NCBI GenBank assembly: GCA_044868045.1
Contig: JBIOWA010000111.1
Coordinates: forward strand, 1-42,373
Length of the DNA stretch: 42,373 nucleotides
Reading direction: 5' to 3'
Source of the DNA: Candidatus Limnocylindrales bacterium
GTDB lineage: Bacteria; Chloroflexota; Limnocylindria; Limnocylindrales; CSP1-4
Made by a program: the position numbers and the translations under genes
The notes under the pieces: model-generated
Told to the model about the DNA's origin: nothing
What the model saw: only the letters and a program-made list of their open reading frames with translations
Database searches by the model: none
Part shown: positions 4,312 to 24,343 of the stretch, one piece after another
Position numbering within the stretch: position 1 is the stretch's first letter
How the letters are laid out: each line of letters begins with the position of its first letter

Positions 4312-4386
4312 TGGCTGGCGAGGAAGGATTCGAACCTTCGATCTCCTGATCCAGAGTCAGGCGCCTTACCGCTTGGCCACTCGCCA
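4312..4386 (-). tRNA. tRNA-Gln(CTG), intact
   Basis: TGGCGAG/CTCGCCA acceptor stem, CCTGA-CTCTGGA-TCAGG anticodon arm, GAAGG-TTCGAAT-CCTTC T-arm, encoded CCA. Confidence 0.97.
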
Positions 4387-4684
4387 GTGCCTGAACGGAG
4401 ATCGAACCTCGTTCGGTCTTCGATCGGGGATGAGTCAGGTGCCCATCCCAAAATGAATCACGTGCCATCCGGAAAACCGGACGATTCTGATGCCCTAGGG
4501 GCGTTCCGAGTCTACCGCAGGCTGGGCGCCTCGGCCTGGCGACCAACGACCGAACGTCGGCCGCCGGAACTCGTGGCACTGCGGCTCGCAGAAGGCTGAG
4601 GGGTCCGAGTGTGAACGAGGAGTCCGCGCAGCAATCGACGCGGGGGGAAGCGTCATCGCGCGCATGAACTCCTCGCACACGAAA

Positions 4685-4735
4685 TGGTACAGTGAGCGAG
4701 TCGCTCATGTTCTGATAGATTTGAGTAGATTTGTG
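4685..4735 (+). promoter_or_regulatory. Extended -10 promoter and tandem direct-repeat operator of the heme operon
   Basis: TGGTACAGT at 4685-4693; TAGATTTG at 4716-4723 and 4726-4733 (10-bp period), an AT-rich patch overlapping the GTG start. Confidence 0.55.
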
Positions 4736-5431
4736 ACTCGTCGTCCGCTCCGTGATCCCGATTGGGTGGGCCTGTCGGAGGCCAGTCGAGTCCTCGGTAT
4801 CTCGCCCGCCACGCTACGCCGCTGGAGCGACGCCGGCCGCCTCCGGGTGTTCACGACGCCCGGTGGTCACCGACGGTTTTCCCGCGCGGCGCTCGAGCGC
4901 CTCCTCCCGGCCGATCGCTCTAGGCGCCCGTCGATCAGCGATGGCGGTCTGACGCCGAGCCGGATCGCGAGAACCTACAGGCGAGCGAGCCGCGAGGTCG
5001 CGCCCGAACTGCCCTGGGTCCTGACCCTCACCGACGAGCAGCGCCTGCTGTTCCGCGAGCGTGGCCACGTTCTCGCTGCGAGCCTCCTCCAGTATCTCGA
5101 CGCGACGCGGCCCGACACCGCGGCGCATCACCTGAACGAGGCGTCCGGCTCCGCCGCCGAGTACGGCAGTGTCGCTGCCGCGCTCGGGCTCTCGCTCAGC
5201 CAGACCATCGAGGGGTTCCTGCGTTTCCGCGCGCCGTTCCACCACGAGCTCGCAGTCACGGCTCGCCGACGGGGCTTCGACACGGCCGAGACGACCGACC
5301 TCCTCGAGACCGCCGAACGGGCGATGGACAGCCTGCTCGTTGCCACGATGACGGGCCACAGCCGGGCGACGGCCCGGAGCAGGGCCCAGCCGGCCGTCGC
5401 GACGACTGTCGCTGCGGAGCCAGAGGCGTGA
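4733..5431 (+). CDS. Excisionase/BldC/MerR-like HTH regulator with all-helical (RsbRD-N/globin-like) C-terminal domain
   Basis: WVGLSEASRVLGISPATLRRWSDAGRL..FTTPGGHRRF is HTH_17/MerR-type; C-terminal EYGSVAAALGLSLSQTIEGFLRFR; stop overlaps hemA start. Confidence 0.8.
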   Translation: MTRRPLRDPDWVGLSEASRVLGISPATLRRWSDAGRLRVFTTPGGHRRFSRAALERLLPADRSRRPSISDGGLTPSRIARTYRRASREVAPELPWVLTLTDEQRLLFRERGHVLAASLLQYLDATRPDTAAHHLNEASGSAAEYGSVAAALGLSLSQTIEGFLRFRAPFHHELAVTARRRGFDTAETTDLLETAERAMDSLLVATMTGHSRATARSRAQPAVATTVAAEPEA

Positions 5432-6597
5432 TAGACGCGACGCCCGGTTCGGTCGTCGCCCTGACGTCCCACGCACGCGGAGTCCCAGCCGTCGAGCGTG
5501 AGCGATTCGCCCAGCGACTGCATTGCCAACTGGCCGATCGCGCACTCATCCTCGAGACCTGCCACCGCGTGGACGCGTTCGCCATCATCGAGCGGGACGC
5601 GCCGCGGCTCGCAGACGACGTCTCGGTCCCGGCCGGCGGACGGGTGCTGACCGGCGAGGACGCCGTCCGGCACGCAATCAGCGTCGCCGCCGGGCGCGAC
5701 TCGGTCGTGATCGGCGAGGATCAGGTCCTTCATCAGCTTCGGACGTCGCTTGACAGGGCTCGCGCTGGAGGACGGCTCGATCCGGCGCTCGAGCGCTTGT
5801 TCGCGATCGCCTTGCGGGCGGGACGCCGGGCGAGGTCGTGGCGTCAGGGACCGCAAGGCTCACTTGCCGACCTCGCGGTCTCATCAATCGAGCGGCAGCG
5901 TGGTCCGCTCAGCGGTCGCGACGTCCTCGTCGTCGGGGCCGGCCAGATGGGCCGGCTCGCCGCCCGAGCCGCGGCGCGGGCCGGGGCGTCGGTCACCGTG
6001 GCCAACCGATCTGCCGGCTCGGCGGAGGCGCTCGCGACGGCGATCGGTGGCCGGATCGAGCCGTTCGACCCTGGTCCGGGAATCACTGGCTTCGCCGGCG
6101 TCGTCGTCGCGCTGGCCGGGCCGTGGCCGATCGGGGCGATGACCATCGACGCCTTGGCCACGAGTGAGACCGTCGTGGTCGATCTGTCGGTGCCGGCCGC
6201 CATCCCGGCCCGGGCAGCCGAACCCCTCGGCCGGCGTCTGATCACGGCCGATGACCTCGCCCTCGTCGAGTCGGGCCCACGTCCGCGCCGGGACGGGCCG
6301 CCCGACCGGGTCGATGCGCTGATAGACGGAGCGACGGCCGAGTTCGTCGCCTGGCAGGAGGGACGCGATCGACGGGCGGCGGCCGAAGCGCTCGTGCAGC
6401 TCGCGGATCGCGAACGCGAGGCCGAGCTGACGGCGCTCTGGCGCCGTTTGCCGAACCTCGAGCCGGAGGCGCGCGACGCAATCGAGGGGATGACCCGCCA
6501 CCTAGCCGATCGTCTCCTTCGAGCCCCGCTTGAGCGTCTGGGCCGGGACAACGACGGTCGTGACGAGCGAGTGATCCGGGACATCTTCGCCCTGTGA
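5428..6597 (+). CDS. hemA: Glutamyl-tRNA reductase (divergent)
   Basis: ETCHR catalytic Cys motif, GRDSVVIGEDQ, GAGQMG NADPH loop, VANRS; operon context. Confidence 0.88.
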   Translation: MIDATPGSVVALTSHARGVPAVERERFAQRLHCQLADRALILETCHRVDAFAIIERDAPRLADDVSVPAGGRVLTGEDAVRHAISVAAGRDSVVIGEDQVLHQLRTSLDRARAGGRLDPALERLFAIALRAGRRARSWRQGPQGSLADLAVSSIERQRGPLSGRDVLVVGAGQMGRLAARAAARAGASVTVANRSAGSAEALATAIGGRIEPFDPGPGITGFAGVVVALAGPWPIGAMTIDALATSETVVVDLSVPAAIPARAAEPLGRRLITADDLALVESGPRPRRDGPPDRVDALIDGATAEFVAWQEGRDRRAAAEALVQLADREREAELTALWRRLPNLEPEARDAIEGMTRHLADRLLRAPLERLGRDNDGRDERVIRDIFAL

Positions 6598-8282
6598 ACA
6601 GTCACGAGATCGCCATCGGCTCCCGGGGCAGCCCACTTGCCCTCGCCCAGGCGCGGCTCGTTCACGACGCGCTGGCACGTGAGGGCCGAGCATGCCGGAT
6701 CGTGATCATCGAAACCGAGGGCGATCGCCGGGCGCCCGACACGGCCTGGGGGGAGGGCGCCTTCGTCGCCGCGATCGAGCTTGCCCTGCTGGCCGGCCGC
6801 GTCGACGTCGCGGTCCACAGCGCGAAGGACATCCCCACCGACGAGGATCCGCGGCTGCGGATTGCCGCCTATCTGACGCGGGCCGACCCGCGCGACGCGC
6901 TTGTCGTCCGGGCCGACGCTAGCGAACGATCGATCGCCGACCTGCCGCTTGGGGCTCGTGTCGGGACCGACAGCCCGCGACGGACCGGCTTCCTGCGCGC
7001 CTGGCGGCCCGACCTCGCGGTCCATCCGCTGCACGGCAATGTCGACACCCGCCTGCGCCGACTCGATGACGGTGAGACTGACGCCCTCGTGCTCGCCTGC
7101 GCCGGGCTGGACCGGATGGGCCTCGGCGGGCGGATCGCCGAGCGGCTCGCACCCGAGACGCTGCCACCGGCACCGGGCCAGGGCGCGATCGCGATCCAGA
7201 TCCGCCGTGACGACCCTCGGCTGCTTGGGCTTGCAACCGCCGTCGACGATCTACGGACGCGCCAGGCCGTCGAGGCCGAGCGCACATTCCTCAAGGCATC
7301 GGGAGGCGGGTGCCGCGCACCCATCGGCGCGCTGGCGACGATCGCCGGCGACCGGATCGACCTCGTCGGAGGCTACGCGAGCCCGGATGGATCTGCTGCG
7401 GCGGTCGCACGGCGCCGCGGTCCAGTTGGCTCCGGCGAGGCACTGGCGCGAGAGCTCGCGGCGGAACTCGACCCGGGAGCGCGCACGCGCATGAGCGACG
7501 TCGGGGACCGGCGCTCGACGGCTCGTCGCGTCCTCGTGACGCGGACCGCCGGGCAGGCGGACGAGCTCGTCGCGGCGCTTCGCGACGTGGGGCACGTTCC
7601 CGTCTCCGTTCCCACGATCGCGATCGAGCACGAACCTCCGCGTGGCGAGCTCGATGCCGCGGCCCGGCATATCGGTTTCTACGCGTGGGTGGTGATCACG
7701 AGCACGAACGGGGCGCGCGCGATCCTCAAGGCCGCGGAGCGCGTCTTCACCCCGTTCGAGGCGTCCCGTTTCGCGGCGATCGGGTCGGCCACCCGGAGTG
7801 CCCTGGAGGTCGAGGGGGTCGATGTCGACTTTCAACCGAGCCATGGGGGATCGGCGGCGCTGGCGGCCGAGCTGCCGGTGAGCCCGGGCGATCGGGTGCT
7901 CGTCATCCGCGGCGATCTCGCCGGGGATGAGGTGGCGGTCGCCCTCCGAGCACGTGGGGCAGAGGTCGACGACGTGATTGCGTACCGGACGCGCGAAGCT
8001 CCCGAGAGTTCGCGAGTCCTGCTCCGGCGGGCCCTGTCGGACTGGCCCATCGCCGCCGTCATCTTCACCAGCGGTTCGACGGTCCGAGGCCTGGTCGCGC
8101 TCGGACGCGACGCGTCGATGGATGTCCTGTCCATGCCGTGCGTCTGCATCGGTCCGGAAACCGCCGACGAGGCACGGGCGGCAGGTTTCCGGATCCTCGC
8201 CGTCGCCGCAACACCGGACTCGGCCGCGCTCGCGAGGGCCACCGCCCGCGCCTTGGCCGTCCGGCCACAGGAGATCCCATGA
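6594..8282 (+). CDS. hemC: Hydroxymethylbilane synthase fused to uroporphyrinogen-III synthase (HemC-HemD)
   Basis: IGSRGSPLALAQA, VHSAKD, GNVDTRL, GGCRAPIG; C-terminal RVLVTR...ITSTNG...FTSGSTV..CIGPET HemD domain. Confidence 0.95.
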   Translation: MNSHEIAIGSRGSPLALAQARLVHDALAREGRACRIVIIETEGDRRAPDTAWGEGAFVAAIELALLAGRVDVAVHSAKDIPTDEDPRLRIAAYLTRADPRDALVVRADASERSIADLPLGARVGTDSPRRTGFLRAWRPDLAVHPLHGNVDTRLRRLDDGETDALVLACAGLDRMGLGGRIAERLAPETLPPAPGQGAIAIQIRRDDPRLLGLATAVDDLRTRQAVEAERTFLKASGGGCRAPIGALATIAGDRIDLVGGYASPDGSAAAVARRRGPVGSGEALARELAAELDPGARTRMSDVGDRRSTARRVLVTRTAGQADELVAALRDVGHVPVSVPTIAIEHEPPRGELDAAARHIGFYAWVVITSTNGARAILKAAERVFTPFEASRFAAIGSATRSALEVEGVDVDFQPSHGGSAALAAELPVSPGDRVLVIRGDLAGDEVAVALRARGAEVDDVIAYRTREAPESSRVLLRRALSDWPIAAVIFTSGSTVRGLVALGRDASMDVLSMPCVCIGPETADEARAAGFRILAVAATPDSAALARATARALAVRPQEIP

Positions 8283-9310
8283 CACTCGACCTGGGAGCAT
8301 CGCCGCCGTCCGCGCCGACCGCCCCCGAGGCCTCCTTGCGGGCCCGACTCCGACGCTTACGACGCACTCCGGCCCTGCGGGCACTGGTCCGGGAGACCCG
8401 CCTCCATCCCTCGATGTTCGTTGCCCCTCTGTTCGTGCAGCCGGGCGTGAACCGCCGCGACCCGATCGGATCCATGCCCGGCCAGGCCCGGCTGTCGCCG
8501 GACCTTGCAGCGGAGGAAGCCGAGCGACTGGCCGGGCTCCGCGTTGGCGGCGTCATCCTATTCGGCCTCCCCGAGTCGAAGGACCCAGTGGGCACGGAGG
8601 CATCCGCAGCCGACGGGATCGTCCAGGACGCCTTCCGGCGCATCCGAGCGCTTGAGTTGCCGCTCGTGACGATTGCCGACACGTGCCTGTGTGAGTACAC
8701 CGACCACGGCCACTGCGGGCTACTCGGGCCGGACGGCTCGGTCGACAACGACGCCGCCACCGCCCGACTCGCCGAGATAGCCGTCACCCAGGCCAGCGCC
8801 GGCGCCGACATCGTCGCGCCCAGCGCGATGATGGACGGCCAGGTTCGTGCGATCCGTGCCGCGCTCGATGAGGCGGGTTTCGGGCAGACCGCGATCATGG
8901 CCTATGCCTCGAAGCACGCCTCGGCCTTCTACGGCCCGTTCCGCGAGGCGGCCGACAGCGCCCCCGCCTTTGGCGACCGGCGGGGCTACCAGATGGATCC
9001 TGCGAATGGCCGAGAGGCGCTCCGCGAGATGGCGCTTGACGTCGCCGAGGGCGCCGACATCCTGCTCGTCAAGCCGGCGCTGCCAGGACTCGACCTCGTC
9101 GCCGCGGCGCGCGCGGGGTTCGACCTGCCGATCGCCGCCTACCAGGTCTCGGGCGAGTACGCGATGATCGGCGCAGCTGCCGAGCGGGGCTGGCTCGACG
9201 GGCGGCGGGCGATGACCGAGGCGGTCACGGCGATCGCCCGGGCCGGAGCGGGGATCATCATCACCTACGCCGCCGCAGACCTCGCGACTTGGCTCCGGGA
9301 AGAGCAATGA
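8279..9310 (+). CDS. hemB: Porphobilinogen synthase, Zn type
   Basis: DTCLCEYTDHGHCG, SAFYGPFREA, YQMDP, VKP, YQVSGEY. Confidence 0.97.
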   Translation: MTLDLGASPPSAPTAPEASLRARLRRLRRTPALRALVRETRLHPSMFVAPLFVQPGVNRRDPIGSMPGQARLSPDLAAEEAERLAGLRVGGVILFGLPESKDPVGTEASAADGIVQDAFRRIRALELPLVTIADTCLCEYTDHGHCGLLGPDGSVDNDAATARLAEIAVTQASAGADIVAPSAMMDGQVRAIRAALDEAGFGQTAIMAYASKHASAFYGPFREAADSAPAFGDRRGYQMDPANGREALREMALDVAEGADILLVKPALPGLDLVAAARAGFDLPIAAYQVSGEYAMIGAAAERGWLDGRRAMTEAVTAIARAGAGIIITYAAADLATWLREEQ

Positions 9311-9996
9311 GCAGCGAGGCGCAGACATACGTCCAGGCGCTCGCCCTCGGGCTCGACCCCGCCTGGCGGCGACGGACCGACATCGAGCGCCACGACGACG
9401 GCTGTCGCTTCGGCGAGGCGCGCACCGCGGGTGAGCTGGACGGCGTGCGGAGCATCAGCTATTCGTCGATCGGCCTCGAGCGTGGCGTGGATCTGCTGTT
9501 CTGGCGGATGGCTCCCAGCGTCGACGTCCTCGAGTCGACCGCCGCGGGGCTGCTCCGGGCCGGCCTCGGCCAGTGGCTGACGGTGACTTACTCATTCATC
9601 GGCCGGATCGGTCCGTCGCAGTACGTCAGGAAGCCCACCGACCAGGAGCAGTCGCTGTTCGCCGGCGAGCGCTCGCGCTACCTCGTCGTCTACCCGTTCA
9701 CCAAGAGCACCGACTGGTACCTCCTGTCGAAGGAGGCGCGCCAGGGCGTGATGAACGAGCACATGCGGGTCGGCCACGAGTACCCTCAGATCCGCCAGGC
9801 TCTTGCCTATTCCTTTGGGCTCGATTCCCAGGACTTCGTCGTCGCCTACGAGACCGACGACCTCGTGGCGTTCGGCGACCTCGTCCGGGCGCTGCGGGCG
9901 ACCGAGAGCCGGCGCTCGACGGTTAGCGACACGCCGATCCTGCTCGGGATCCACCGCCCGGTCGACGAGATCCTCAGCCTGCTCGGAGCCGAGTGA
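9307..9996 (+). CDS. chdC: Coproheme decarboxylase (HemQ/ChdC, chlorite dismutase superfamily)
   Basis: YPFTK motif, WYLL..EARQGVMNEHMRVG proximal His, heme operon context. Confidence 0.85.
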   Translation: MSSEAQTYVQALALGLDPAWRRRTDIERHDDGCRFGEARTAGELDGVRSISYSSIGLERGVDLLFWRMAPSVDVLESTAAGLLRAGLGQWLTVTYSFIGRIGPSQYVRKPTDQEQSLFAGERSRYLVVYPFTKSTDWYLLSKEARQGVMNEHMRVGHEYPQIRQALAYSFGLDSQDFVVAYETDDLVAFGDLVRALRATESRRSTVSDTPILLGIHRPVDEILSLLGAE

Positions 9997-11285
9997 TGGC
10001 CGGCACGGCGATCGGGTCGCGGACCGCGGCACTCGTCGAACGCGCCGAGCGGCTGTTCCCCGGCGGCGTCAACAGCCCAGTCCGCGCCTTCCGCGCCGTG
10101 GGCCGGTCGCCGCTCGTTCTCGAGCGGGGCGACGGACCGTACGTCTGGGACGCCGACGGACGGCGCTACATCGACTACATCGGCGCCTGGGGCCCTGCGA
10201 TCCTGGGGCACGCCCATCCGGCGGTCATCGAGGCGGTCGGGGACGCCGCGCGGAACGGGTTCGCCCTCGGGGCAACGAACCCGCTCGAGGTCGAGCTGGG
10301 CGAGGCGATCCGGGCGGCGATGCCGTCGATCGAGCGCCTCCGGCTTACGTCGTCGGGAACCGAGGCAGTGATGAGCGCGCTCCGGGTGGCGCGGGCTGCG
10401 ACCGGTCGCAACCTCATCGTCAAGTTCGCCGGCGCCTACCACGGACACGCCGACGGGCTACTCGTCGAGGCCGGTTCGGGGGTGGCGACGCTGGCGATCG
10501 CCGGCAGCGCCGGGGTGCCCGACGTCGTGGCCGCGACGACGATCGTGCTCCCGTACAACGACCCGGCAGCGGTGAGCCGGGCCTTCGCCGATCACGCCGG
10601 GCGGATCGGGGCGCTGATCGTCGAGCCCGTCATGGCCAACGCCGGCGTCATCCCGCCCGAGCCCAGCTTCCTCGAGCACCTGCGCGAGACGACCCAGGCC
10701 GACGGCGCGCTCCTCGTCTTCGACGAGGTCATCACCGGGTTCCGGGTTGCGCCCGGCGGGGCGCAGGCGCGGTTCGGCGTCACGCCCGACCTCACCACAC
10801 TCGGCAAGATCATCGGCGGCGGCATGCCGATCGGGGCCTATGGCGGTCGAGCGGACCTCATGGACCTCGTCTCGCCGGCGGGTCCCGTCTACCAGGCGGG
10901 CACGCTGTCCGGCCACCCGCTGTCGATGGCCGCCGGCATCGCCACGCTCGGGGAGCTGGGCGAGGAGCGCTATGCGGCCCTCGAGCAGTCGGCCGTGGCG
11001 CTCACAGCCGGGCTCACGGAGGCCGCGACGAGCGCGGGCCGGGAGGTGGCCGTCGCCCGGGTCGGCTCCTTGCTGACCGTGTTCTTCCGGTCGACGCCGC
11101 CGGTCGATGCCGCCGAGGCGCTTGCATCCGACCGCGATGCCTACGCCCGGTTCTTCGGGGCGATGCTCGATCAGGGCATCCTGCTGCCCCCTTCGCAGTT
11201 CGAGGCGTGGTTCGTATCGATGGCTCACGGGTCGGCCGAGTTCGATGCGACGCGCGATGCCGCACGAACGGCTTTCGCGGCATGA
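9996..11285 (+). CDS. hemL: Glutamate-1-semialdehyde 2,1-aminomutase
   Basis: PGGVNSPVRAF, SGTEA, FDEVITGFR, LGKIIGGGMP, YQAGTLSG. Confidence 0.97.
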   Translation: MAGTAIGSRTAALVERAERLFPGGVNSPVRAFRAVGRSPLVLERGDGPYVWDADGRRYIDYIGAWGPAILGHAHPAVIEAVGDAARNGFALGATNPLEVELGEAIRAAMPSIERLRLTSSGTEAVMSALRVARAATGRNLIVKFAGAYHGHADGLLVEAGSGVATLAIAGSAGVPDVVAATTIVLPYNDPAAVSRAFADHAGRIGALIVEPVMANAGVIPPEPSFLEHLRETTQADGALLVFDEVITGFRVAPGGAQARFGVTPDLTTLGKIIGGGMPIGAYGGRADLMDLVSPAGPVYQAGTLSGHPLSMAAGIATLGELGEERYAALEQSAVALTAGLTEAATSAGREVAVARVGSLLTVFFRSTPPVDAAEALASDRDAYARFFGAMLDQGILLPPSQFEAWFVSMAHGSAEFDATRDAARTAFAA

Positions 11286-12328
11286 ACGATCGCCTCCTGC
11301 GGACCTGCCGTCGCGAGCCGGTCGACGCCACGCCGGTGTGGTTCATGCGCCAGGCGGGCCGCTCGTTCGCCGCCTACCGCAGGCTTCGCGAGCGGTACGG
11401 CATCCTCGAGCTCGCCAAGACCCCCGAGCTATGCGCCGAGGTGACCCTCATGCCCGTCCACGAGCTCGGCGTCGACGCGGCCGTCCTGTTCGCCGACATC
11501 ATGCTGCCGCTCGAGCCGATGGGGGTCGGCCTGCGGATCGAGCCCGAGGTCGGGCCGATCATCGACCGGCCGATCCGGTCGGCAGCGGACGTCGCTGCGC
11601 TCCGGCCCTTCGATCCGGCCCAGGTCTCCTTCACGTTCGATGCGATCCACCTCGTCCGGCGCGAGCTCGGCGGCTCGGCCGGCGTCATCGGCTTTTCGGG
11701 CGCTCCCTTCACCCTCGCCTGCTATCTCATCGAGGGCCGCGCGTCGCGCGACTACGCGGTCGCCAAGTCGTTCATGTACCGCGAGCCCGCCGCCTGGCAC
11801 GACCTGATGGAGCGGCTGTCGTCGATGGTGGCTCGGTATCTCCGGGCGCAGGTCGCGGCGGGCGCCGAGGTCGTCCAGCTGTTCGACAGCTGGGTCGGGG
11901 GGCTCGGCCCCGCCGACTACGCGGCGTTCGTCCAGCCCCACGTCCGGCGGATCTTCGCGGCCCTCGACGAGGTCCCGACGATCCACTTCGGGACGGGGAC
12001 GACGGCAATCCTCGAGCTCATGGCCGAGGCCGGCGGGGACGTCATCGGCATCGACCACCGGGTCGCACTCGCGGATGCCTGGCGGCGCGTGGGCTACGAC
12101 CGGGGCATCCAGGGCAACCTCGACGCGGCCCGCGTCCTGGCCGGCTGGGAGGCGACGGAGGCGGGCGCGCGAGCCGTCCTCGCCGAGGCCGACGGTCGAC
12201 CCGGCCACATCTTCAACCTCGGGCACGGCGTGCTGCCCGACTCAGATACTGCTCTACTTCGACGCCTGGTCGACTTCGTCCACGAGCAGACCGCCAGCAC
12301 AGGCGTCAGCGCCGAGGTTCTCGCGTGA
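11282..12328 (+). CDS. hemE: Uroporphyrinogen decarboxylase
   Basis: PVWFMRQAGR, FADIM, IGFSGAPFTLA, QLFDSW, IFNLGHGV; ATG at 11282 overlaps hemL stop. Confidence 0.97.
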   Translation: MNDRLLRTCRREPVDATPVWFMRQAGRSFAAYRRLRERYGILELAKTPELCAEVTLMPVHELGVDAAVLFADIMLPLEPMGVGLRIEPEVGPIIDRPIRSAADVAALRPFDPAQVSFTFDAIHLVRRELGGSAGVIGFSGAPFTLACYLIEGRASRDYAVAKSFMYREPAAWHDLMERLSSMVARYLRAQVAAGAEVVQLFDSWVGGLGPADYAAFVQPHVRRIFAALDEVPTIHFGTGTTAILELMAEAGGDVIGIDHRVALADAWRRVGYDRGIQGNLDAARVLAGWEATEAGARAVLAEADGRPGHIFNLGHGVLPDSDTALLRRLVDFVHEQTASTGVSAEVLA

Positions 12329-13284
12329 CCGCCACCGAGCGCCGCGGGGTGCTCCTGATGACCTATGGCTCACCCGCCTCCCTGGAGCGTGAGGACATCC
12401 GGATATACCTGGCACGCGTCCGCGGCGGACGCGAGCCGGATTCCGAGCTCGTCGACGAGTTCGTCCGGCGATACCGCGTCATCGGCGGATCGCCGCTCAT
12501 CGAGATCACCCGTGTCCAGGCGGCCGCACTCGAGGAGTCGCTCGGCTGGCCAGTCGAGGTCGGGATGCGCTTCTCCGAGCCGTCGATCGCGAGCGGCATT
12601 CGGGCCCTCGCGGACCGCGGAGTGGAGCGCATCGCCGCGATCGTCCTCTCGCCGCAGTTCTCGCCGCTGCTGATGAGCGGCTACGCGAGGGGGATTGAGG
12701 AGGCCCGGACGGCGCTAGGGGATGACGCGCCCGAGGTGAGCGTCGCCGGCGCCTGGCACGACGAGGCGGCGTTTGTTCGCGCGCTCGCGAATAGAGTCAG
12801 CGACGGGCTGGCAGCGTTGCCGCCCAACGAGGGGGAAGCGGTCGAGGTCCTGATGACCGCGCACAGCCTCCCGAAGCGCGTTGCCGAGCAGGAGCCCGGA
12901 TATCTCGCCCAACTCCGCGACACGGCGGTGGCCGGTGCCGCCCGAGCCGGTCTCCCCGAGCACGGATGGCAGTTCTGCTGGCAGAGCGCGGGGCACGAGC
13001 CGGGCGAGTGGATGAAGCCAGACTTCGCCGACCTGATGCCGGAGCTCGCCGCGGCTGGACGTCGGTCGGTCCTGGTCGCACCGGTCCAGTTCCTGGCCGA
13101 CCACCTCGAGATCCTCTACGACGTCGACGTCGGAGCCCGCGAGCAGGCGGAGCGATGCGGCCTGTCGTTCCGGCGGATCGAATCACTCAACGCGGAGCCG
13201 GCTCTGATCGAAGCGCTGGCCGCAGTAGCCCGACGCACTCTGGCGACGGCCGAGCCACTCGGTGTGGCCGCGGAGCGATCGTGA
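12325..13284 (+). CDS. hemH: Ferrochelatase (probably coproporphyrin ferrochelatase CpfC)
   Basis: GVLLMTYGSP, GGSPL, TAHSLP, WQSAG, DHLEILYDVD. Confidence 0.95.
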   Translation: MTATERRGVLLMTYGSPASLEREDIRIYLARVRGGREPDSELVDEFVRRYRVIGGSPLIEITRVQAAALEESLGWPVEVGMRFSEPSIASGIRALADRGVERIAAIVLSPQFSPLLMSGYARGIEEARTALGDDAPEVSVAGAWHDEAAFVRALANRVSDGLAALPPNEGEAVEVLMTAHSLPKRVAEQEPGYLAQLRDTAVAGAARAGLPEHGWQFCWQSAGHEPGEWMKPDFADLMPELAAAGRRSVLVAPVQFLADHLEILYDVDVGAREQAERCGLSFRRIESLNAEPALIEALAAVARRTLATAEPLGVAAERS

Positions 13285-13479
13285 TCCGAATACATGCTGC
13301 GTAGAGGACAGCGGAGCTAGGGAGGCCGTCGAAGGCGTTCCCGCGATCCGATGGCCGCGAGGGTGTTCGCGGTCGGCATGCCCGAAAATCGCTCAGGTGG
13401 CAGGTCTTCAGCGTTGTGGCAGACGCCGTCACTCAAGATTCGCAGCCTGAAGCAGCGGTCTGAACGGGAAAGGGGAGCC

Positions 13480-13521: not shown

Positions 13522-13539
13522 CCGACGCCTAAAACCGAG

Positions 13540-15806: not shown

Positions 15807-15829
15807 CCCAGCAGGCCAGGTCGATCACC

Positions 15830-16213: not shown

Positions 16214-16309
16214 CCGACTTGGCCAGGCGCCGTCACTTCAGCGCGCACAACGGCGCCGCTACAACCTGACGGAAATCTGGGTGCTCAACCGCGCTGCATC
16301 TCCGGAGAC

Positions 16310-16738
16310 TTACGCCGCCTTCGATCCTTCCGTCACCTCGCCCTTGTGCGCCGCAAACGCGGCGAGGACTTCGCCCTTCTCGCGCTCGGGCACATTAAAC
16401 GCGTCGAGTGCCCGTGAGAGTTCGGCCGCGACCTCGTCGAACTCCTCCGGCGTGATCCGCAGGCGCCGGTGTGCCTCCTCGAGCCCGAGGATCGTGCTTC
16501 CCGGAACGGTGGGCGAGTACTGGAACGGTCCGCCGGCGACGTTGCACACCCAGAGCATGCGCATGAACTTCAGCCCAGGCAGCCTTCCGATGTCTCTCGT
16601 GGACCACTCGCGGAGCTGGGGATTGGGCGACTGCTCGCCCACCTTTGGATTCTTGATGATCGCGTCACTGAATCGGTCGACAACCGCGGCGATGGCGAAG
16701 ACGCCACCGATCCGGTCGTACAGGGTCTGCTCAGCCAC
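16310..16738 (-). CDS. Group I (2/2) truncated hemoglobin
   Basis: TLYDRIGG, AGGP..Y, LEEAH (proximal His), ITPEEFD; GTG start chosen at 16738. Confidence 0.88.
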   Translation of the reverse strand: MAEQTLYDRIGGVFAIAAVVDRFSDAIIKNPKVGEQSPNPQLREWSTRDIGRLPGLKFMRMLWVCNVAGGPFQYSPTVPGSTILGLEEAHRRLRITPEEFDEVAAELSRALDAFNVPEREKGEVLAAFAAHKGEVTEGSKAA

Positions 16739-17031
16739 GTTCGGGTACCTCGCTTGCGCGTCGGGATCGATCGAGAGGAGGGGCGGCTGACGCAACCGAC
16801 CGCTCCGCCGAAACGCCGGGCAAAAATCGGCTCAACCACCTCCTCGCGCGCCGCCATCGCGCTGATCTGGGCTGCGGCGCCCCCGAGGAACCTGGGCAAC
16901 GGCAGCCCACGAACGGCTGCGCTCGTGCGGCGGTCGCGGTTCGCGAACAATCCGACGATAGCCTCGGTCCAACTCCCGTCGCGTCGATGAGTTCAACGAC
17001 AAACTGCCGAAGTTGATGCGATTCGCGTGAC

Positions 17032-17667
17032 TCATGCTGCGAGCCCGAACAGCCACCCCTCGCGCTCTGCAATCCCGACGAGGGCCGTGCGGCTCGTGAC
17101 TGAGTAACGATCGAACAGGCGGCGGAGGACCGCCTCTACGGTCGGACGCCGGATCGACAGCCGTTCGGCGATCGTGGCGTTCGTTCCGCCGGTGGCGACC
17201 TCTGCGATGATCGCCAGCTCTCGCGGCGCCGGACGCCGGCGTGCTCGCTTGACGATGTCCTCCACGCCAGGGGCAACGACCTTGCCACCACCAGCGACGG
17301 TGCGGATTGCGGTGACGATCTCCGTGACCGGGGCGGTCTTCGACAGGACGCCCTCGGCCCCAGCGTCAAGTGCCGCCTGCAGGAGACTGGGCAAGATGAT
17401 GCCCGTGAGCAGCACGACCGGCGGCCGGGGCGTGCGCGAGCGCAGGAGATCCAGTCCGCAGCCTCTGCCAGAGAAGGCGATCTCCGAAACGACGAGGTCG
17501 GCCCAACCATCAGCCATCGCACGAATGGCGGCCTCGGGTTCGGTGGCGGTATCAACCACGAGGCCAGCCTCGTCCGCGAGGAGTGTGCGCAACGCGACAC
17601 CGACAATCGGATGCTCGTCGACGACGAGCAGCCGGAATACTTCGGGCGAAGCGGCGCGACTCGCCAT
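17032..17667 (-). CDS. NarL/FixJ-family response regulator, atypical receiver
   Basis: LLVVDEHP receiver start, GVLSKTAP, C-terminal LuxR HTH (PRELAII..VATGGTNATIAERL). Confidence 0.85.
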   Translation of the reverse strand: MASRAASPEVFRLLVVDEHPIVGVALRTLLADEAGLVVDTATEPEAAIRAMADGWADLVVSEIAFSGRGCGLDLLRSRTPRPPVVLLTGIILPSLLQAALDAGAEGVLSKTAPVTEIVTAIRTVAGGGKVVAPGVEDIVKRARRRPAPRELAIIAEVATGGTNATIAERLSIRRPTVEAVLRRLFDRYSVTSRTALVGIAEREGWLFGLAA

Positions 17668-17801
17668 GGCGTGGCCCGTAGAACGTCCACGAAGACGACG
17701 TGTCCGGCTTTGGGGCATCTCAAGCTCCGGGTTCGATCACAGAACTGGCGGCTGGGAAGGTGACTGGTGCGGGTTCGCGAATCTAAAACTAGCGTTGGTT
17801 A

Positions 17802-17830
17802 GTTATAGCGTCCCAGAGCCGACGTGTCAA
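17802..17830 (-). promoter_or_regulatory. Near-consensus sigma70 promoter for the response regulator
   Basis: Minus strand TTGACA-17 bp-TATAAC. Confidence 0.75.
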
Positions 17831-17961
17831 GGTCGCCGCGCTTTCGCCGGCCGGCTCGCCGACGGGCGGCTTGATGCGCTCCTCGACCCCTGATGGCACG
17901 GCGCGCGACGGCAGCGTGATCCCTGCCCCTGGCCGACTCGAGTTCCTACGGTGAGGCGAGC

Positions 17962-18999
17962 TCACCTGAAGTAGTCGAGCCCCATCGCGGCGTGCACGCT
18001 GGCGATCGTCCGCTGCGCCTCGGCCCGGGCGCGCCGGCGTCCCGCCTCGAGCACGTCCTCGACGATCGTCGGGTTGTCCTGCAGCAGCGCAGCGCGGGAC
18101 TCCCGGATCGGGTCGAGAAATGCATTCAGCGCTCTGGCGAGGCTGCGCTTGACCTCCACGTCCCCGACCCGGCCGGAGCGGTAGCGCTTCTTGAGCTCGG
18201 CCACCTCGTCGATGTTCGTGTTGAAGGCGTCGTGGTAGGCGAAGACCGGATTGCCCTCGACGCGGCCAGGCTCAGTCGCGTGGATCCGCCTCGGGTCCGT
18301 GAACATCCCCATGACCTTCGAATCGACCGTGGCTGGGTCATCGAAGAGGTTGATCGCGTTGTTCCGGGAGCGACCCATCTTCGGATCGCCGTCGGTGCCG
18401 GGTAGAAGGCCGACCCCCGGGATCAACGCTGCCGGCTCGCGGAAGACGGGCCCAAAGGCGGCGTTGAACGAGCGGACGATCTCCCTGGCGATCTCGACGT
18501 GGGAGGCCTGGTCCCGCCCGACGGGCACGACCTCGCCCTGGACGAGCAGGATGTCGCTGGCCTGGAGGATCGGGTAACCGAGCAGCCCGTACGAGGGTTC
18601 GGCGGCCCGAGTCTCGGCCATCTTGTCCTTGAGGGTCGGGATCCTGCGCACGCGGGGGACCGACACCAGCATGCCCAGGAGGAGGAAGAGCTCGGCCGTC
18701 TCCGGGACCTGCGATTGCAGGTAGATCGTCGCCCTTGCGGGGTCGATGCCGACGGCGAGGTTGCCGAGGACGTCCTCGCGGATGTCACGGCCCACGTCGG
18801 GCGTTCGATCCGGCCGCGTGGTGAGCACGTGGTAGTCCGCCACCAGGACGAACGGTTCGAACTCGTCCTGGAGACGAACGCGGTTGGCCAGCGTCCCGAC
18901 GTAGTGCCCGAGGTGGAGCGGGCCGGTCGGTCGATCGCCGGTGAGCATCCGCCGCCGGGGCGCATCGTGCGGCTGACCAACCGCGTCGCTCGCCGGCAT
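17962..18999 (-). CDS. trpS: Tryptophanyl-tRNA synthetase
   Basis: LTGDRPTGPLHLGH, GYPILQASDI, VPVGRDQ, KMGRS (KMSKS variant). Confidence 0.95.
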   Translation of the reverse strand: MPASDAVGQPHDAPRRRMLTGDRPTGPLHLGHYVGTLANRVRLQDEFEPFVLVADYHVLTTRPDRTPDVGRDIREDVLGNLAVGIDPARATIYLQSQVPETAELFLLLGMLVSVPRVRRIPTLKDKMAETRAAEPSYGLLGYPILQASDILLVQGEVVPVGRDQASHVEIAREIVRSFNAAFGPVFREPAALIPGVGLLPGTDGDPKMGRSRNNAINLFDDPATVDSKVMGMFTDPRRIHATEPGRVEGNPVFAYHDAFNTNIDEVAELKKRYRSGRVGDVEVKRSLARALNAFLDPIRESRAALLQDNPTIVEDVLEAGRRRARAEAQRTIASVHAAMGLDYFR

Positions 19000-19010
19000 G
19001 AGGTTGCGAC

Positions 19011-19724
19011 TTACGGCCGGCGTTGCGCCGGCGTCGCGGCGGAGATGGCGACGCAGCACTGACCGGGCTGCGGATCGAGCCTCGCACTGAGGCGGTCGTC
19101 GCCGAGCCCGTCCAGGATGCCGTCGGCCAGCGCGAGGTTCATGTTGCAGACCAGGTCGCGGTGGTCTTCCACCAGCGCGTGGAACGGGCAGTTCCGGAGT
19201 CGGATCTCGCCGGAGGGCGTCTCGGCGGGTTCATAACCGCGAGCCTCCAGTGACTCCTCCAGGGCTGCGCGCAGCCGGCGCCGGCTCGGTCGCGGTCCGC
19301 TCCGCCGGCGGGCGGCCGTCCCGATCCCCTCGCCGAGGCCGTGGGCGGCCGAACGAAGCGCATCGGGCGGCGTTGGCCCGGTAAGTTGCTCCATCGCCGT
19401 CGCCAGGAGCTCGGCTGGGACATCGTAGTGCCGGTCCGGCAGCGAGACGTCGAACTCCCGGGAGCCGCGACGGTAGAGCTTCGACGGGCGCCCGGCACCC
19501 GGCCCTGTCCGGCCAGACAGTCGCCGGTACTCGACCTCGAGCAGCCCGGCGCCGACGAGCTTGTCGAGATGGAACGCCGCCAGAGCACGGGTGACGCCGG
19601 CCGTCGAGGCGGCCTCGTCGCGGTTGAGCGGGCGGCTGGCGTCGGCGACGGCGTCATAGAGCGCCCGGCGGGCAGGTTCGTCCAGCAGGGCAACGGCTTC
19701 GATGTCGGTCGGGTTCGTCGGCAT
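19011..19724 (-). CDS. Winged-HTH transcriptional regulator with C-terminal Cys cluster (metal or Fe-S sensor-like)
   Basis: AFHLDKLV..GLL, GAGRPSKLY, NCPFH..LVC..GQCC; TAGAAT 7 nt upstream of the ATG. Confidence 0.85.
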   Translation of the reverse strand: MPTNPTDIEAVALLDEPARRALYDAVADASRPLNRDEAASTAGVTRALAAFHLDKLVGAGLLEVEYRRLSGRTGPGAGRPSKLYRRGSREFDVSLPDRHYDVPAELLATAMEQLTGPTPPDALRSAAHGLGEGIGTAARRRSGPRPSRRRLRAALEESLEARGYEPAETPSGEIRLRNCPFHALVEDHRDLVCNMNLALADGILDGLGDDRLSARLDPQPGQCCVAISAATPAQRRP

Positions 19725-19732
19725 GGCTCCCA

Positions 19733-19812
19733 TTCTAAAGGAAGTCGTCGCTAACGCAAGACTTGACAGCCTGAGCTGGGTTCTGTATTACTAGCGAATG
19801 CTCACGTTAGAA
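19733..19812. promoter_or_regulatory. Divergent promoter region with inverted repeat
   Basis: TTCTAA (19733-38) and TTAGAA (19807-12) inverted pair; TTGACA at 19763 followed 17 bp later by TATTAC on +; TAGAAT -10 on -. Confidence 0.5.
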
Positions 19813-20266
19813 CGCGCCAGATCGGTTTCGTGGGCATGGTCGTAATCCTGCTCGGCGTCGTCCTCTATGGCGTCCGGCGGACCTGCCGCAGCCGCGCGGG
19901 CGGCGACTCGATCGCCCCGACGCGTGCGACCTCCACCCCAAGGACTTGAAGGCGGCGCCTCGCGAGCGCTCCCGGAGGAACCAGCTATGGATGGACCCGC
20001 CTCGAGAACTCCCAGGACCTTGCCAGAGCGGGGCCAGCCCCGCCTCGCCCGCTGCCAGATCTGCGGCCACCAGCACGCATGCTACGTCGCGGATCGCCCA
20101 GGCCCGATCGGTCCAGAGGGGCCGTCGTGGCTTTCTTCCTTCGCGTGTCTTGGCTGCCTGATGCGGGCAGCCGACCGACCGCACGGACTGCGGATTGCGT
20201 CTATCCGGACTGACCGTCCGGTCACGCCCCGTTAGGCCCGATCTGCGGGCAAAGGAGAACAGAGCG

Positions 20267-20935
20267 ATGCCTCGAAAGCTGGGTCTCGGCGCGATCGTCG
20301 GGGTCCTCACCGCCAGCCTGGCGCTTGCGTTCGCCGTCACCGCCACGCCAGCTGCTGATGCCCACTCGGGGCATGGAGCAGGTTCTGACAAGGCCGCCTT
20401 CCACGACGCGATGCGCAAGCTATGGGAAGACCACATCGTGTGGACCCGCCAGTTCATCGTCAGCGCCGCCACCGAGAGCGGCAACCTCGCCGATATCGGC
20501 CCGACGGCCGACAGGCTCCTCGCCAACCAGACCGATATCGGCAACGCACTCAAGCCGTTCTATGGCTACGCCGCCGGCAACCAGGTAACCGCACTGCTAC
20601 GCGACCACATCCTGACGGCCGCCGAGCTCGTCGCGGCCGCTAAGGCCGGCGACGCGGCCGCGGTCGAGACCGCGTCAGCCGCCTGGTATCAGAACGCCGA
20701 CGACATCGCGACCGCGCTGAACGGGCTCAACCCCGAGCACTGGCCGCTGGCCGAGATGCAGGCCCACATGAAGGACCACCTCGACCTCACGCTCAAGGAG
20801 GCGGTGGCACGGCTCCAGGGCCGCTACGCCAACGACATCGCTGCCTACGACGAGATCCACGTCCAGATCCTGGGCATGGCCGACATGTTGAGCGACGGGA
20901 TCATCGCCCAGTTCCCGGCGAAGTTCGCCCGCTAA
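20267..20935 (+). CDS. Secreted all-helical protein with periodic His residues (uncharacterised)
   Basis: AAGGAG RBS, signal peptide, AHSGHG, WEDH/LRDH/MKDH/EIH helices. Confidence 0.8.
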   Translation: MPRKLGLGAIVGVLTASLALAFAVTATPAADAHSGHGAGSDKAAFHDAMRKLWEDHIVWTRQFIVSAATESGNLADIGPTADRLLANQTDIGNALKPFYGYAAGNQVTALLRDHILTAAELVAAAKAGDAAAVETASAAWYQNADDIATALNGLNPEHWPLAEMQAHMKDHLDLTLKEAVARLQGRYANDIAAYDEIHVQILGMADMLSDGIIAQFPAKFAR

Positions 20936-20941
20936 CGAACA

Positions 20942-20979
20942 GACCCGGGAGAGGCGGTGTTCTTGCCTCTCCCGGAGTC
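20942..20979 (+). terminator. GC-rich hairpin after the secreted-protein gene (terminator or mRNA stabiliser)
   Basis: CCGGGAGAGGC/GCCTCTCCCGG perfect 11-bp stem; no clear U-tract. Confidence 0.5.
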
Positions 20980-21128
20980 TCCCCTTGGCTTCTGCGGGTT
21001 CACGTCGCATTGATGCCGCTTCGCCAGTCCGTTCAGCACACCAGCCTAGGGTCGGTCCGGTGGATCTCTGCGGGTCGCCGATCCAGCAGGCGGCCCGACA
21101 GCCCTCAGGGCTCACCAAGGAACGCTCG

Positions 21129-21815
21129 ATGACACAACCAACCAACGGCCATCACGCCGCCGCTCTAATCACGCCGCCGCTCCTCGCCCGCAGCACGTCC
21201 CACCACGCCCAGCCCCGCCAGCTGTCGGACGAGGACTGGACGCGCTTCGAGGGCTACGCCGCCGAGATCCTGACATCGTTCGGCCTCGATCTGTCCACGC
21301 CGGGCACCAAAGACACGCCGCGACGCTTCCTCCGCGCGATCTTCGATGCGACTGAGGGCTACGACGGTGACCCGAAGCTGCTCACCGCCTTCCCGACCGA
21401 GTGCCGTGGCGGTGCGAACTGCGAACTCGCCCAGGTGGTCGAGGGGCCGATCCCGTTCGTCGGCCTCTGCGAGCACCACGTGCTGCCGTTCGTCGGCCGG
21501 GCGTGGATTGGGTACGTCGCCCACGACCAGATCATCGGGATCAGCAAGCTGACCCGCCTCGTCCGCGTGCTCACGCGCAGGTTCGGCGTCCAGGAGCGGA
21601 TGACGCACGAGATCGCCGACTCCCTCCAAGAGATGGTCAACGCACACGGAACGGCGGTCCTCCTCGAAGCCAGCCACTTGTGCACACAGATGCGGGGAGT
21701 CCGCGAACACGAGCCGCTGACGCGGACGACTGCCTACCGCGGCACGTACATTGCTGACCCCTCGCTGCGAAGTGAGTTCTTCGGCTTGACCCGGACCGGA
21801 GCCGCGAGGGCATGA
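21129..21815 (+). CDS. folE: GTP cyclohydrolase I
   Basis: TPRRF, LCEHHVLPF, IGISKLTRLV, VQERMT, HLCTQMRGV. Confidence 0.93.
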   Translation: MTQPTNGHHAAALITPPLLARSTSHHAQPRQLSDEDWTRFEGYAAEILTSFGLDLSTPGTKDTPRRFLRAIFDATEGYDGDPKLLTAFPTECRGGANCELAQVVEGPIPFVGLCEHHVLPFVGRAWIGYVAHDQIIGISKLTRLVRVLTRRFGVQERMTHEIADSLQEMVNAHGTAVLLEASHLCTQMRGVREHEPLTRTTAYRGTYIADPSLRSEFFGLTRTGAARA

Positions 21816-22732
21816 CACTCACTGCTTCACCGCCGGCGGTGGCCGACCTTGGGCACGTCCGGGACCTCGACGCGCTTTGGCCGGTCGATCTCCTGTGGCA
21901 GTCCGGCATCGACCTGTCCGACGGGGAGGCTAGAGGGGGCGTGCTGCCCGCGGCGCTCGCGGCGCGCTACGCGGCTCCGCTCTCGATCCCGCTGCGGACC
22001 GATCGGCCGACGATTGTCGCAAACTTCGTATCGACGCTCGACGGCGTGGTCGCGCTGGATCGTATCGGCGCCTCCGGTGGCCGCGAGATCAGCGGCAGGT
22101 TCGAGCCCGACCGCTTCCTCATGGGCCTCCTTCGAGCTACGGGGGACGCGGTCCTGGTCGGCGCGGGGACGGTGCGGGCGAGCCGGACGCACGGCTGGAC
22201 GCCGGCGCACGCGCATGCGGCCTCCGTCCCCGGGTTCGCCGCGTGGCGGCGCGAGCTCGGGCTCACCGCCTCACCGGCGACGGTCATCGTCACGGCATCG
22301 GGGTCGCTCCAGCCCGGGTACCTCCCGGAGGATCCCGGGGCTCCCGTGATCGTCGTCACGACGGAGTCGGGCGCCCGGCGCCTCGGCAGCCCTCCACGCG
22401 CTGAGATCGTCTCGGTTAGCGACGGGGATTCGATCCCGATGGACACCCTCCTTACGTTCCTCGACGCGCGCGGGTTCCGACTCGTCGTCTCGGAAGGGGG
22501 ACCCACGGTGTTCGGCGAGCTTCTCGCTTCGTCGGTGATCGACGAGGTCTTCCTCACGCTCGCACCACAGCTCGCCGGTCGGAGCGCCGCGTCGGCGCGA
22601 CTCAGCCTCGTCGAGGGCGTGGCACTCGCGCCAGAAGCGCGGTGGGGCCGGCTCCGGAGCGTGATGCGTTCGAACGACCACCTCTTTCTCCGCTACCAGC
22701 TATCCCAGCCACATCGTGAGGACTTGACATGA
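21812..22732 (+). CDS. RibD C-terminal/DHFR-like pyrimidine or pterin reductase
   Basis: ANFVSTLDG, DAVLVGAGTVR, SEGGPT, IDEVFLTLAP. Confidence 0.85.
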   Translation: MTLTASPPAVADLGHVRDLDALWPVDLLWQSGIDLSDGEARGGVLPAALAARYAAPLSIPLRTDRPTIVANFVSTLDGVVALDRIGASGGREISGRFEPDRFLMGLLRATGDAVLVGAGTVRASRTHGWTPAHAHAASVPGFAAWRRELGLTASPATVIVTASGSLQPGYLPEDPGAPVIVVTTESGARRLGSPPRAEIVSVSDGDSIPMDTLLTFLDARGFRLVVSEGGPTVFGELLASSVIDEVFLTLAPQLAGRSAASARLSLVEGVALAPEARWGRLRSVMRSNDHLFLRYQLSQPHREDLT

Positions 22733-23967
22733 GCTCGATCGAACGCATCGTCATCGTCGGAGCGGGGCTTGCAGCTGCCCGTGCCGCCGAATCACTCCGG
22801 AACGAAGGGTTCGAAGGATCAATCACGATCTTCGGCGACGAGCCGGAGCGGCCCTACCTGCGCCCTCCGCTCTCGAAGCAGTTCCTCCGAGGCGAGGGTG
22901 GCCGCGAACAGGTCTATGTGTACCCCGAGACTTTCTACCCCGAGCAGCGGATCGACCTCGGGTCAGCGACCACGGTATGTGCGATCGAGCCTCGGTCCCG
23001 GGAAGTCGTCCTCGACGGCGAGGACCGGGTGCCGTTTGACCGGCTCCTGATCGCGACAGGGGCTCAGCCGCGGACGCTGCCGGTGCCGGGCGCCGACCTG
23101 CCGGGCGTCATGACGCTCCGCACGATGGCGGATGCGGACGCGATCCGCGCGGCCGCGACCGATGCCGAGCGAATAGCTGTGATCGGCGCGGGCTGGATCG
23201 GAAGCGAGGTCGCCGCATCGCTCCGGATGCTCGGCCGGACCGTTGTCCTGATCGCCCCCGAGGCCGCTCCGCTCGAGCGGGTGCTCGGGCCCGAGGTCGG
23301 CGGCGTCTACCGCGACCTGCACCTCGAGCGCGGGGTCGACTGGCGACCCGGTACGACCGTCCAACGGATCATCGGGACCGCCCGAGTCGAGGGGATCGAG
23401 ACATCGGCAGGGGAGCGGATCTCCGCCGACCTCGTCGTCGCCGGTATCGGCGTGCAGCCGCGAACGGAGCTTGCCGTGTTGGCCGGCGCCGCCGTTGGTG
23501 ACGGGATCGAGGTGAGTTCGACGCTCGAGACCTCGGTGCCCGGCATCTTCGCGGCTGGCGACGTCGCATCGGCGTGGCATCCCTTCTACGAGCGGCGCCT
23601 CCGAACGGAACACTGGGCCAACGCGAAGTTCCAGGGCTCGACCGCCGGCAGGTCGATGCTCGGCGGAACGGAGCCGTACGACCGGATCCCGTACTTCTAC
23701 TCCGACCAGTACGACCTCGGCATGGAGTACACGGGCTGGGCGTCGCCGTCGGACCGGCTCGTCGTCCGCGGCAGCCTCGCTGATCGGCGGTTCGTCGCCT
23801 TCTGGCTTGCCGAGGGTCGTGTAGTCGCGGGGATGAACGCCAACGTCTGGGACGTCGCGAAGCCGATCGAGCGGCTCGTCCGGTCCCGTGCGGTCGTCGA
23901 TCCGGGCGCCCTCGCCGATCCCTCCGTCGCGATCGACGAGCTGGCCGGGGTCGCCGCAGCTGCCTGA
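22729..23967 (+). CDS. FAD-dependent NAD(P)H:ferredoxin reductase-like oxidoreductase
   Basis: GAGLAA, PYLRPPLSK, ATG, GAGWIGSE, AAGDVA, EHWANA, PYFYSDQYD. Confidence 0.92.
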   Translation: MSSIERIVIVGAGLAAARAAESLRNEGFEGSITIFGDEPERPYLRPPLSKQFLRGEGGREQVYVYPETFYPEQRIDLGSATTVCAIEPRSREVVLDGEDRVPFDRLLIATGAQPRTLPVPGADLPGVMTLRTMADADAIRAAATDAERIAVIGAGWIGSEVAASLRMLGRTVVLIAPEAAPLERVLGPEVGGVYRDLHLERGVDWRPGTTVQRIIGTARVEGIETSAGERISADLVVAGIGVQPRTELAVLAGAAVGDGIEVSSTLETSVPGIFAAGDVASAWHPFYERRLRTEHWANAKFQGSTAGRSMLGGTEPYDRIPYFYSDQYDLGMEYTGWASPSDRLVVRGSLADRRFVAFWLAEGRVVAGMNANVWDVAKPIERLVRSRAVVDPGALADPSVAIDELAGVAAAA

Positions 23968-24269
23968 TCCGGCCGCACCCTGTGAAGCCTGCAGGGCGGG
24001 TTGCCGCGCCGCCGCCGACGAGTGCGGTGATTCGACAGCGCCGGCGAGCGCCTGCCACCCTACCTCCGGCTCCAGATCCTGATCACCGAGCACTGGAGCC
24101 TTAGCCAGCCCAGGAGCTCGGCCGGATCGAGCCCAATCAGGTGCCCCAAAGACCAGGGGAGTCAGGTGTCCAAAACCATCTCGTCGGCTCCTCGCCGACG
24201 AGGTCCTAGGACTCCTCAGGCCACAAGATGTTGGGTTTCCCCTTCGGCATGCGCCGCATCTTGTGGAGT

Positions 24270-24343
24270 TGGCTGGCGAGGAAGGATCGGAACCTCAATC
24301 CCCTGATCCAGAGTCAGGCGCCTTACCGCCTGGCCACTCGCCA
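24270..24343 (-). tRNA. Degenerate tRNA-Gln(CTG) copy (pseudo-tRNA or non-canonical)
   Basis: Acceptor and anticodon arms and CCA identical to 4312-4386; T-loop TTCCGAT, T-stem TGAGG/CCTTC, 4-nt variable loop, one D-loop change. Confidence 0.8.

Follow-up and report, generated by a model that had tools for sequence, protein, structure and literature searches.

A 20-kb segment that carries a heme (hem) operon between two whole tRNA-Gln(CTG) genes was analysed in a 42,373-nt stretch of DNA, hereafter the window, from an uncultured soil bacterium, Candidatus Limnocylindrales bacterium (Chloroflexota). The segment is probably a genomic island that has no integrase gene and belongs to a tandem array at tRNA-Gln(CTG). 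It was likely inserted by an Xer-like tyrosine integrase that crosses over in the anticodon loop, and its attachment (att) site likely comprised a whole tRNA gene with its own promoter; the host-side copy would then have decayed, the integrase gene would have been deleted later, and the cargo would have been gathered stepwise. The window is contig C111 of the source genome, G000, a short-read metagenome-assembled genome (MAG) of 3.2 Mb in 321 contigs with 87% completeness. Throughout, G-numbers denote genomes, C-numbers contigs of G000, and L-numbers compared loci. Coordinates of the features are collected in the table.

Both tRNA-Gln(CTG) copies proposed by the first-pass annotation of this DNA are called as complete genes by ARAGORN, at 4312-4386 (copy 1) and 24270-24343 (copy 2), both on the minus strand. 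They lie in direct orientation 19,957 nt apart, within the 2-200 kb that Islander allows between direct copies bracketing an island. The copies are 92% identical over 75 nt, with differences at 6 of the 75 positions, and 84% identical over 133 nt when the 3' flanks are included. Copy 1 has the commonest sequence in the genus (Rfam score 70.1 bits). Copy 2, also full length, scores 47.8 bits and ranks 36th among the 38 tRNA matches of the genome; its lesions are A14 changed to G, the loss of one T-stem base, and a T-loop that reads TTCCGAT. Its GGGGATT variable region and 3' flank are common to the left tRNA of the metagenomic locus L254 and represent a variant, not a lesion. Judged by its surroundings, copy 2 occupies the host position of the gene, because in G101 and G072 a TAGAAT box with the same spacing precedes, respectively, the single tRNA and the 5' half of the gene, and because an LCP, VanY or 25334 gene adjoins this tRNA in 22 of 29 loci of relatives. 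A third tRNA-Gln(CTG) on C298 (3097-3170, 54.3 bits) has an anticodon-stem mismatch and lies amid accessory-looking genes, and tRNA-Gln(TTG) is also encoded in G000; a relaxed ARAGORN scan yielded noise only. CAG accounts for 20,016 of the 22,328 glutamine codons in the gene calls made in this analysis. Relative to G101 and G072, about 250 extra bases separate the last host gene from the tRNA promoter (24344-24640); short motifs within them also occur at 39404 and on C37, C87 and C238.

The absence of an integrase between the tRNA genes was borne out: PF00589 has three matches in the genome and none on the window contig, and the sole tblastn match of the family integrases on the window (3859-4225) is outside the 20-kb segment. 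The segment is identified as an island by its two ends, which correspond to those, left and right, of a single integrase family. At the left, islands in G047, G139, G130, G078, G104 and G042 have left ends that can be aligned with the 3' flank of copy 2; the alignment spans a pair of NrdR-like boxes and two TGGGCACCTGACT repeats and diverges where the relatives enter the integrase gene. Copy 1 has a second left end of the same type as its 3' flank, which continues into an integrase remnant that has additional small indels in contigs from other samples. The homology of the approximately 55-bp flanks is thus real and belongs to the left ends of two sister islands, not to one duplicated att site, since the flank of copy 2 aligns with left ends of relatives and that of copy 1 enters the integrase remnant. 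Genes for TlpA, a BNR-repeat protein and CopC-CopD occupy positions 120-3835 beyond the remnant; they probably belong to the cargo of the next island, whose far end is off the contig.

For the right end, homologs of the 130 nt that precede copy 1 were found in 13 of 131 genomes. Conservation starts at a TAGACT or TAGAAT box and proceeds through the repeats to a fixed spacer before the tRNA; two weaker TGGGCACCTGACT copies were found by alignment in this region of the window. A search pattern combining the repeat with the tRNA 5' start retrieved eight loci in species genomes (four already in the set) and 23 in metagenomes, one of them a chance match. The 33 distinct right ends compared, which include the window and are enriched for 5' halves by the search pattern, comprise 25 with a tRNA 5' half, 18 of these with a near-whole tRNA, and eight with an unrelated 30-mer at the same spacing. 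The possibility that these 30-mers are decayed tRNA 5' halves was rejected, as they match no better than shuffles (p 0.36-0.62); their equal spacing to the repeats stands.

The tRNA-Gln(CTG) gene is a hotspot in the genus. It was matched in 99 of 101 genus genomes, many of which have further 3' fragments kilobases downstream. The anticodon loop spans bases 31 to 37; several downstream fragments start at its first base, and the host copy in G072 stops at its last. A 7-bp crossover within the loop fits these family members; both window copies are whole, and the crossover is extrapolated to them from the family. The integrase encoded behind the tRNA in G078, G047, G104, G130 and G139 is Xer-like and scores below the XerC and XerD cut-offs. 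Other cargo is found behind the same tRNA in G101, G072, G139, G140 and G021.

Elements with comparable ends make an att site with a complete tRNA, as was first suggested, the most likely arrangement. In L254, a 2.2-kb element, the left and right subtypes are those of the window segment, both tRNAs are whole and an integrase gene is absent. In G072, only bases 1-37 remain at the host promoter, and a whole tRNA lies 11.6 kb further on behind the same type of right end. G140 also has a whole tRNA behind this right end, and no 5' remnant was found in it.

The proposed origin starts from a circle with a promoter, repeats, a whole tRNA, the box pair, further repeats and an integrase gene, which would recombine with the chromosome in the anticodon loop. 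Integration would join the host promoter and host 5' half to the island 3' half, giving copy 2, and the island promoter and island 5' half to the resident 3' half, giving copy 1. With two genes present one would be spare, and the host-side copy could decay, so that the island promoter is predicted to serve the best tRNA-Gln(CTG) gene that the genome has. The integrase gene would have been lost later by a deletion behind the left-end repeats. Exact excision would leave an A14-altered 5' half, so the island is probably fixed. The cargo was probably gathered stepwise, as the hem operon retains the end of an earlier tRNA-Thr island.

Several observations weigh against this reconstruction. The family integrase has no obvious arm-binding domain. 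Apart from the window, only L254 shows both ends together with two whole tRNAs, and the G072 element combines this right end with a left end that lacks the 3' half, so the ends can mix. No empty site was seen in the same species. Contigs from four of the 20 listed sequencing runs, which are soil metagenomes with no RNA data set among them, were placed on the window; none of the contigs listed spans either tRNA-Gln, and the lesions of copy 2 lack confirmation by independent contigs. The GC content at third codon positions is 0.859 in the cargo and 0.858 in core genes (16 genes each), with no compositional sign of transfer.

In an alternative that we regard as unlikely, the ends of two sister islands, one restoring the 3' half and one the 5' half, were fused by a deletion that removed the inner junction together with the integrase gene, and no att site ever held a whole tRNA. 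Pure types of this kind exist: eight of the 33 right ends lack the 5' half, the flanks in G072, L249 and L258 lack the 3' half after the loop, and the segment itself is a mosaic with a tRNA-Thr scar, an IS481 element and a broken transporter gene. Against such a fusion, the 20 kb were searched without finding an inner tRNA-Gln loop junction or repeat (the one match from an Rfam E-value search of 13200-24300 is ascribed to chance), and in L254 these left and right subtypes occur together. It is still less probable that an ordinary island, bounded by a 3' fragment, acquired a complete right end afterwards, through recombination or gene conversion with a tRNA-Gln allele of the host. The right-end 5' halves do match several host alleles, including a type linked to glnS, but inheritance with the element better explains a 5' half at a fixed distance from the repeats, behind a conserved spacer, in many unrelated loci.

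Two tRNA genes could also have been placed around native genes by misassembly or plain chromosomal duplication, the least probable of these explanations. A short-read MAG of 321 contigs, unbridged tRNAs and the host-like composition of the cargo would allow it; however, the copies differ at 6 of 75 positions, a separate family-specific end accompanies each of them, the native locus of the hem genes lies elsewhere and holds none of them, and relatives have other cargo at the site. The earlier suggestion to inspect the junctions and the same locus in relatives was answered in part. In run X1, a single contig (4360-5952) joins the 5' part of tRNA copy 1 to hemA, and the depth of long contigs is similar over flank and cargo, about 6-10, with neither tRNA spanned; in runs X5 and X6 the region 15.7-23 kb is less covered, a difference that was not used as evidence. 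Correct assembly at both tRNA junctions is plausible, not proven. In relatives the site is filled differently, and no conspecific empty site was seen.

The island resembles those collected by Islander. According to the Islander paper (PMC4383910), 2083 of 3919 islands use the anticodon-loop subsite, and 159 of 3919 (Table 1) displace a 5' tRNA fragment. With the anticodon-loop islands the window element shares the tRNA target, the direct orientation, the tandem array, a predicted loop crossover and the accessory cargo, and its site is differently filled in relatives. Unlike them, it ends in whole tRNAs on both sides, so that no displaced copy is merely a fragment and the tDNA filter described there rejects it. 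It also has no integrase on board, for which the integrase filter rejects it; the remnant sits in the next island, and left ends of relatives lead into the gene. A further difference is that the family integrase is Xer-like. As in 5'-displacing islands, the element supplies the 5' half and presumably a promoter, G072 being a clean case with the same right end; unlike them, it seems to supply the 3' half too, giving two whole genes. Since the tDNA filter of Islander, the standard finder working from tRNA fragments, discards islands with two whole tRNAs, the class may be undercounted.

The box pairs at the left ends resemble the operator of NrdR, which consists of two tandem boxes approximately 31-32 bp apart (PMC2892513). 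The palindromic 16-mers of the window are likewise paired, 30-33 nt apart, and the same pair precedes nrdR in G000; unlike the known operator, the window pair lies between the tRNA 3' end and the position of the integrase gene, not in an nrd promoter. A matrix built from the island boxes and scanned genome-wide for pairs 30-33 nt apart hit four places in G000, namely both tRNA-Gln flanks, a tRNA-Glu 3' flank, and a site 22 nt before nrdR. The identity of the nrdR gene was confirmed, and its box pair is an independent check, since the pattern was trained on the island boxes. Among 82 distinct 3' flanks the pair occurs in 23, and in 15 of the 18 that lead to a family integrase or repeats; it occurs in none of 4100 shuffles, with a pattern shaped on these very boxes. 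We infer that NrdR could bind the island box pairs, and in the circle the tRNA promoter would read through them into the integrase gene. A class I/II ribonucleotide reductase large subunit was not found in G000 despite the presence of nrdR, which may reflect an assembly gap. The tRNA-Glu(CTC) pair (C148 242-288, L267) possibly marks another island left end.

The cargo includes a near-complete heme pathway, as the first-pass annotation had recognized: every step of the coproporphyrin route except the oxidase is encoded in the operon. The coproporphyrin-dependent pathway comprises HemA, HemL, HemB, HemC, HemD, HemE, CgoX/HemY, CpfC/HemH and ChdC/HemQ. The window operon is like it in encoding all steps but one together, and differs in that HemY was not found in G000 and that operons of the window type move as island cargo within the genus. 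The hemA and chdC genes score below the NCBIfam cut-offs but have the Pfam domains, and the frames are open and abutting. In the 87% of the genome represented by G000, TIGR00562 (HemY) and PF01218 (HemF) have no match and TIGR00538 (HemN) is below its cut-off; CgoN was not searched. HemY is matched in six of 131 genomes, G000 not among them, and chdC in 46 of the 131 genus genomes, five of which have a HemY match. The lack of HemY in about nine of ten chdC carriers points to an unassigned oxidase step.

The distribution of the operon identifies it as recurrent island cargo in the genus, judging from its genomic contexts. hemB is present in none of 16 genomes of the sister family. A protein tree of 47 hem operons splits into groups of 11 and 36 rows, both with support 100. 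Nine operons of the smaller group occupy one chromosomal place, beside LLM/aldehyde-dehydrogenase and HhH-GPD genes; the corresponding ancestral locus in the window, 39441-42125, contains no hem genes. Operons of the larger group are scattered over different places. Of the 35 examined in this group, 10 have a tRNA gene or fragment no more than 7 kb away, versus none of the 11, in a comparison where many flanks are short and kin are not independent. In G141 the hem operon is inside a 14.5-kb island of the same family at tRNA-Gln, and in G048 it lies alone between tRNA-Thr(CGT) and its 3' fragment in a 9.4-kb island. A hem operon in G072 (L236/L105) has a whole tRNA-Arg(CCG) on one side and, on the other, a right end of the tRNA-Gln type with the loop sequence CTCCTGGA, intermediate between the loops of tRNA-Arg and tRNA-Gln. 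Two hemE paralogues occur in the native-locus operons and a few others, and several mobile copies lack hemA and hemL.

It had been suggested that the island could give heme prototrophy to a host lacking it, and that the genome be checked for other hem genes. A second operon, from hemC to hemH, was found on C321 and C158 with 79% nucleotide identity. C321 begins inside hemC, so its hemA is unseen, and the island hemA is the only one in the assembly. The island by itself probably did not supply heme synthesis, because most heme genes occur twice in the genome. The second operon and the lack of HemY weaken the case for a gain of prototrophy; some lineage-level support comes from the empty ancestral locus and from the marker-tree clade holding G000, in which eight of 14 genomes (71-93% complete) have no chdC match. 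The gain is therefore unproven. Independent origins of the two hem operons of G000 were considered: they fall apart in a quick tree (76% identity), but the approximately unbiased test does not reject one clade for them (p 0.73, with the constrained tree scoring higher). The proposed comparison of heme and species phylogenies gave hem and marker trees that look incongruent when compared by eye.

We speculate, tentatively, that an Xer-like tRNA-Gln island family of soil Chloroflexota carries a whole tRNA and its promoter in the att site and can take over the main glutamine tRNA of the host, which would lock the island in once the host copy decays. Its integrase gene behind NrdR boxes would tie mobility to nucleotide pools, and the family would shuttle the heme operon to lineages that lost it. 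If the island-side copy becomes the working tRNA, this would be a simple way of fixing cargo without a toxin-antitoxin system. NrdR boxes before the integrase would form a testable link between deoxynucleoside triphosphate status and excision, and in soil bacteria that are abundant and uncultured the patchy mobile heme operon provides a natural test of heme auxotrophy and regain. A literature search, which was not exhaustive and does not show absence from print, found no publication that describes att sites with a whole tRNA, NrdR boxes at integrases, or such a mobile hem operon.

In its gene content the 20-kb segment is a mosaic, because it contains a tRNA-Thr scar and because its globin trio and FolE block lie beside hem operons elsewhere (G120 and G083). 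The scar, a decayed end of a tRNA-Thr(CGT) island, is not detected by Rfam at 13391-13521. The trio of LuxR-type regulator, globin and DUF1622 genes is directly upstream of the hem operon in G120. Of 131 genomes, 23 have a FolE of the window type; its neighbours are the same in most of 12 loci, and in G083 it is next to a hem operon.

Table. Features of the tRNA-Gln(CTG) island and its borders in the window (positions of the whole stretch; strand as given)
Feature	Position	Strand	Basis or remark
N-terminal remnant of family Xer-like integrase, next island	3859-4225	-	45-61% to integrases of relatives
NrdR-like box pair, left end of next island in array	4263-4311	.	alignment, pair scan
tRNA-Gln(CTG) copy 1, intact, attR	4312-4386	-	ARAGORN, Rfam; predicted crossover loop 4356-4350
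Island right end: -10-like TAGACT 4514-4509, TGGGCACCTGACT repeat 4445-4433, fixed spacer to tRNA	4387-4516	-	homology
hem operon: BldC/excisionase-like regulator, hemA, hemC-D, hemB, chdC, hemL, hemE, hemH	4664-13284	+	
tRNA-Thr(CGT) island-end scar: decayed 3' half and flank	13391-13521	-	80% over 133 nt to left end of hem-only island in G048
Broken MFS-like transporter gene, several frame breaks	13560-14719	-	three-frame translation; family judged by eye
IS481 DDE transposase	14859-15806	+	NF033577 over cut-off
LuxR-type response regulator, bacterial globin, DUF1622	15830-17667	-	
Second tryptophanyl-tRNA synthetase	17962-18948	-	TIGR00233 over cut-off; 38% to C142 copy
HTH regulator, uncharacterised protein, FolE, RibD-C reductase, ferredoxin-reductase-like flavoprotein	19011-23967	.	
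Two TGGGCACCTGACT-type repeats of family left end	24135-24172	-	motif scan and alignment to relatives
Tandem NrdR-like box pair, island left end	24221-24266	.	genome-wide pair scan
tRNA-Gln(CTG) copy 2, host 5' half and island-type 3' half, damaged, attL	24270-24343	-	predicted crossover loop 24313-24307
Host-type -10 box TAGAAT	24357-24362	-	13 nt upstream of copy 2; putative promoter

Other genomes show another way of having two whole tRNA-Gln(CTG) genes at the site: glnS lies upstream, usually directly, of a second, often divergent tRNA-Gln. Such loci are L050-L051 (G001), L065 (G059), L067 (G060), L072 (G011), L075 (G116), L076 (G010), L077 (G022) and L078 (G023). The glnS copy of G060 is over the TIGR00440 cut-off and that of G022 is broken. 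The combination looks like a module of GlnRS and a matched tRNA. At L242, a family right end is followed by a whole variant tRNA-Gln, directly by a second tRNA-Gln, and then by an integrase gene. Elsewhere in the window, a thiamine pyrophosphate (TPP) riboswitch at 32860-32967 is located ahead of an NMT1/THI5-type transporter operon.

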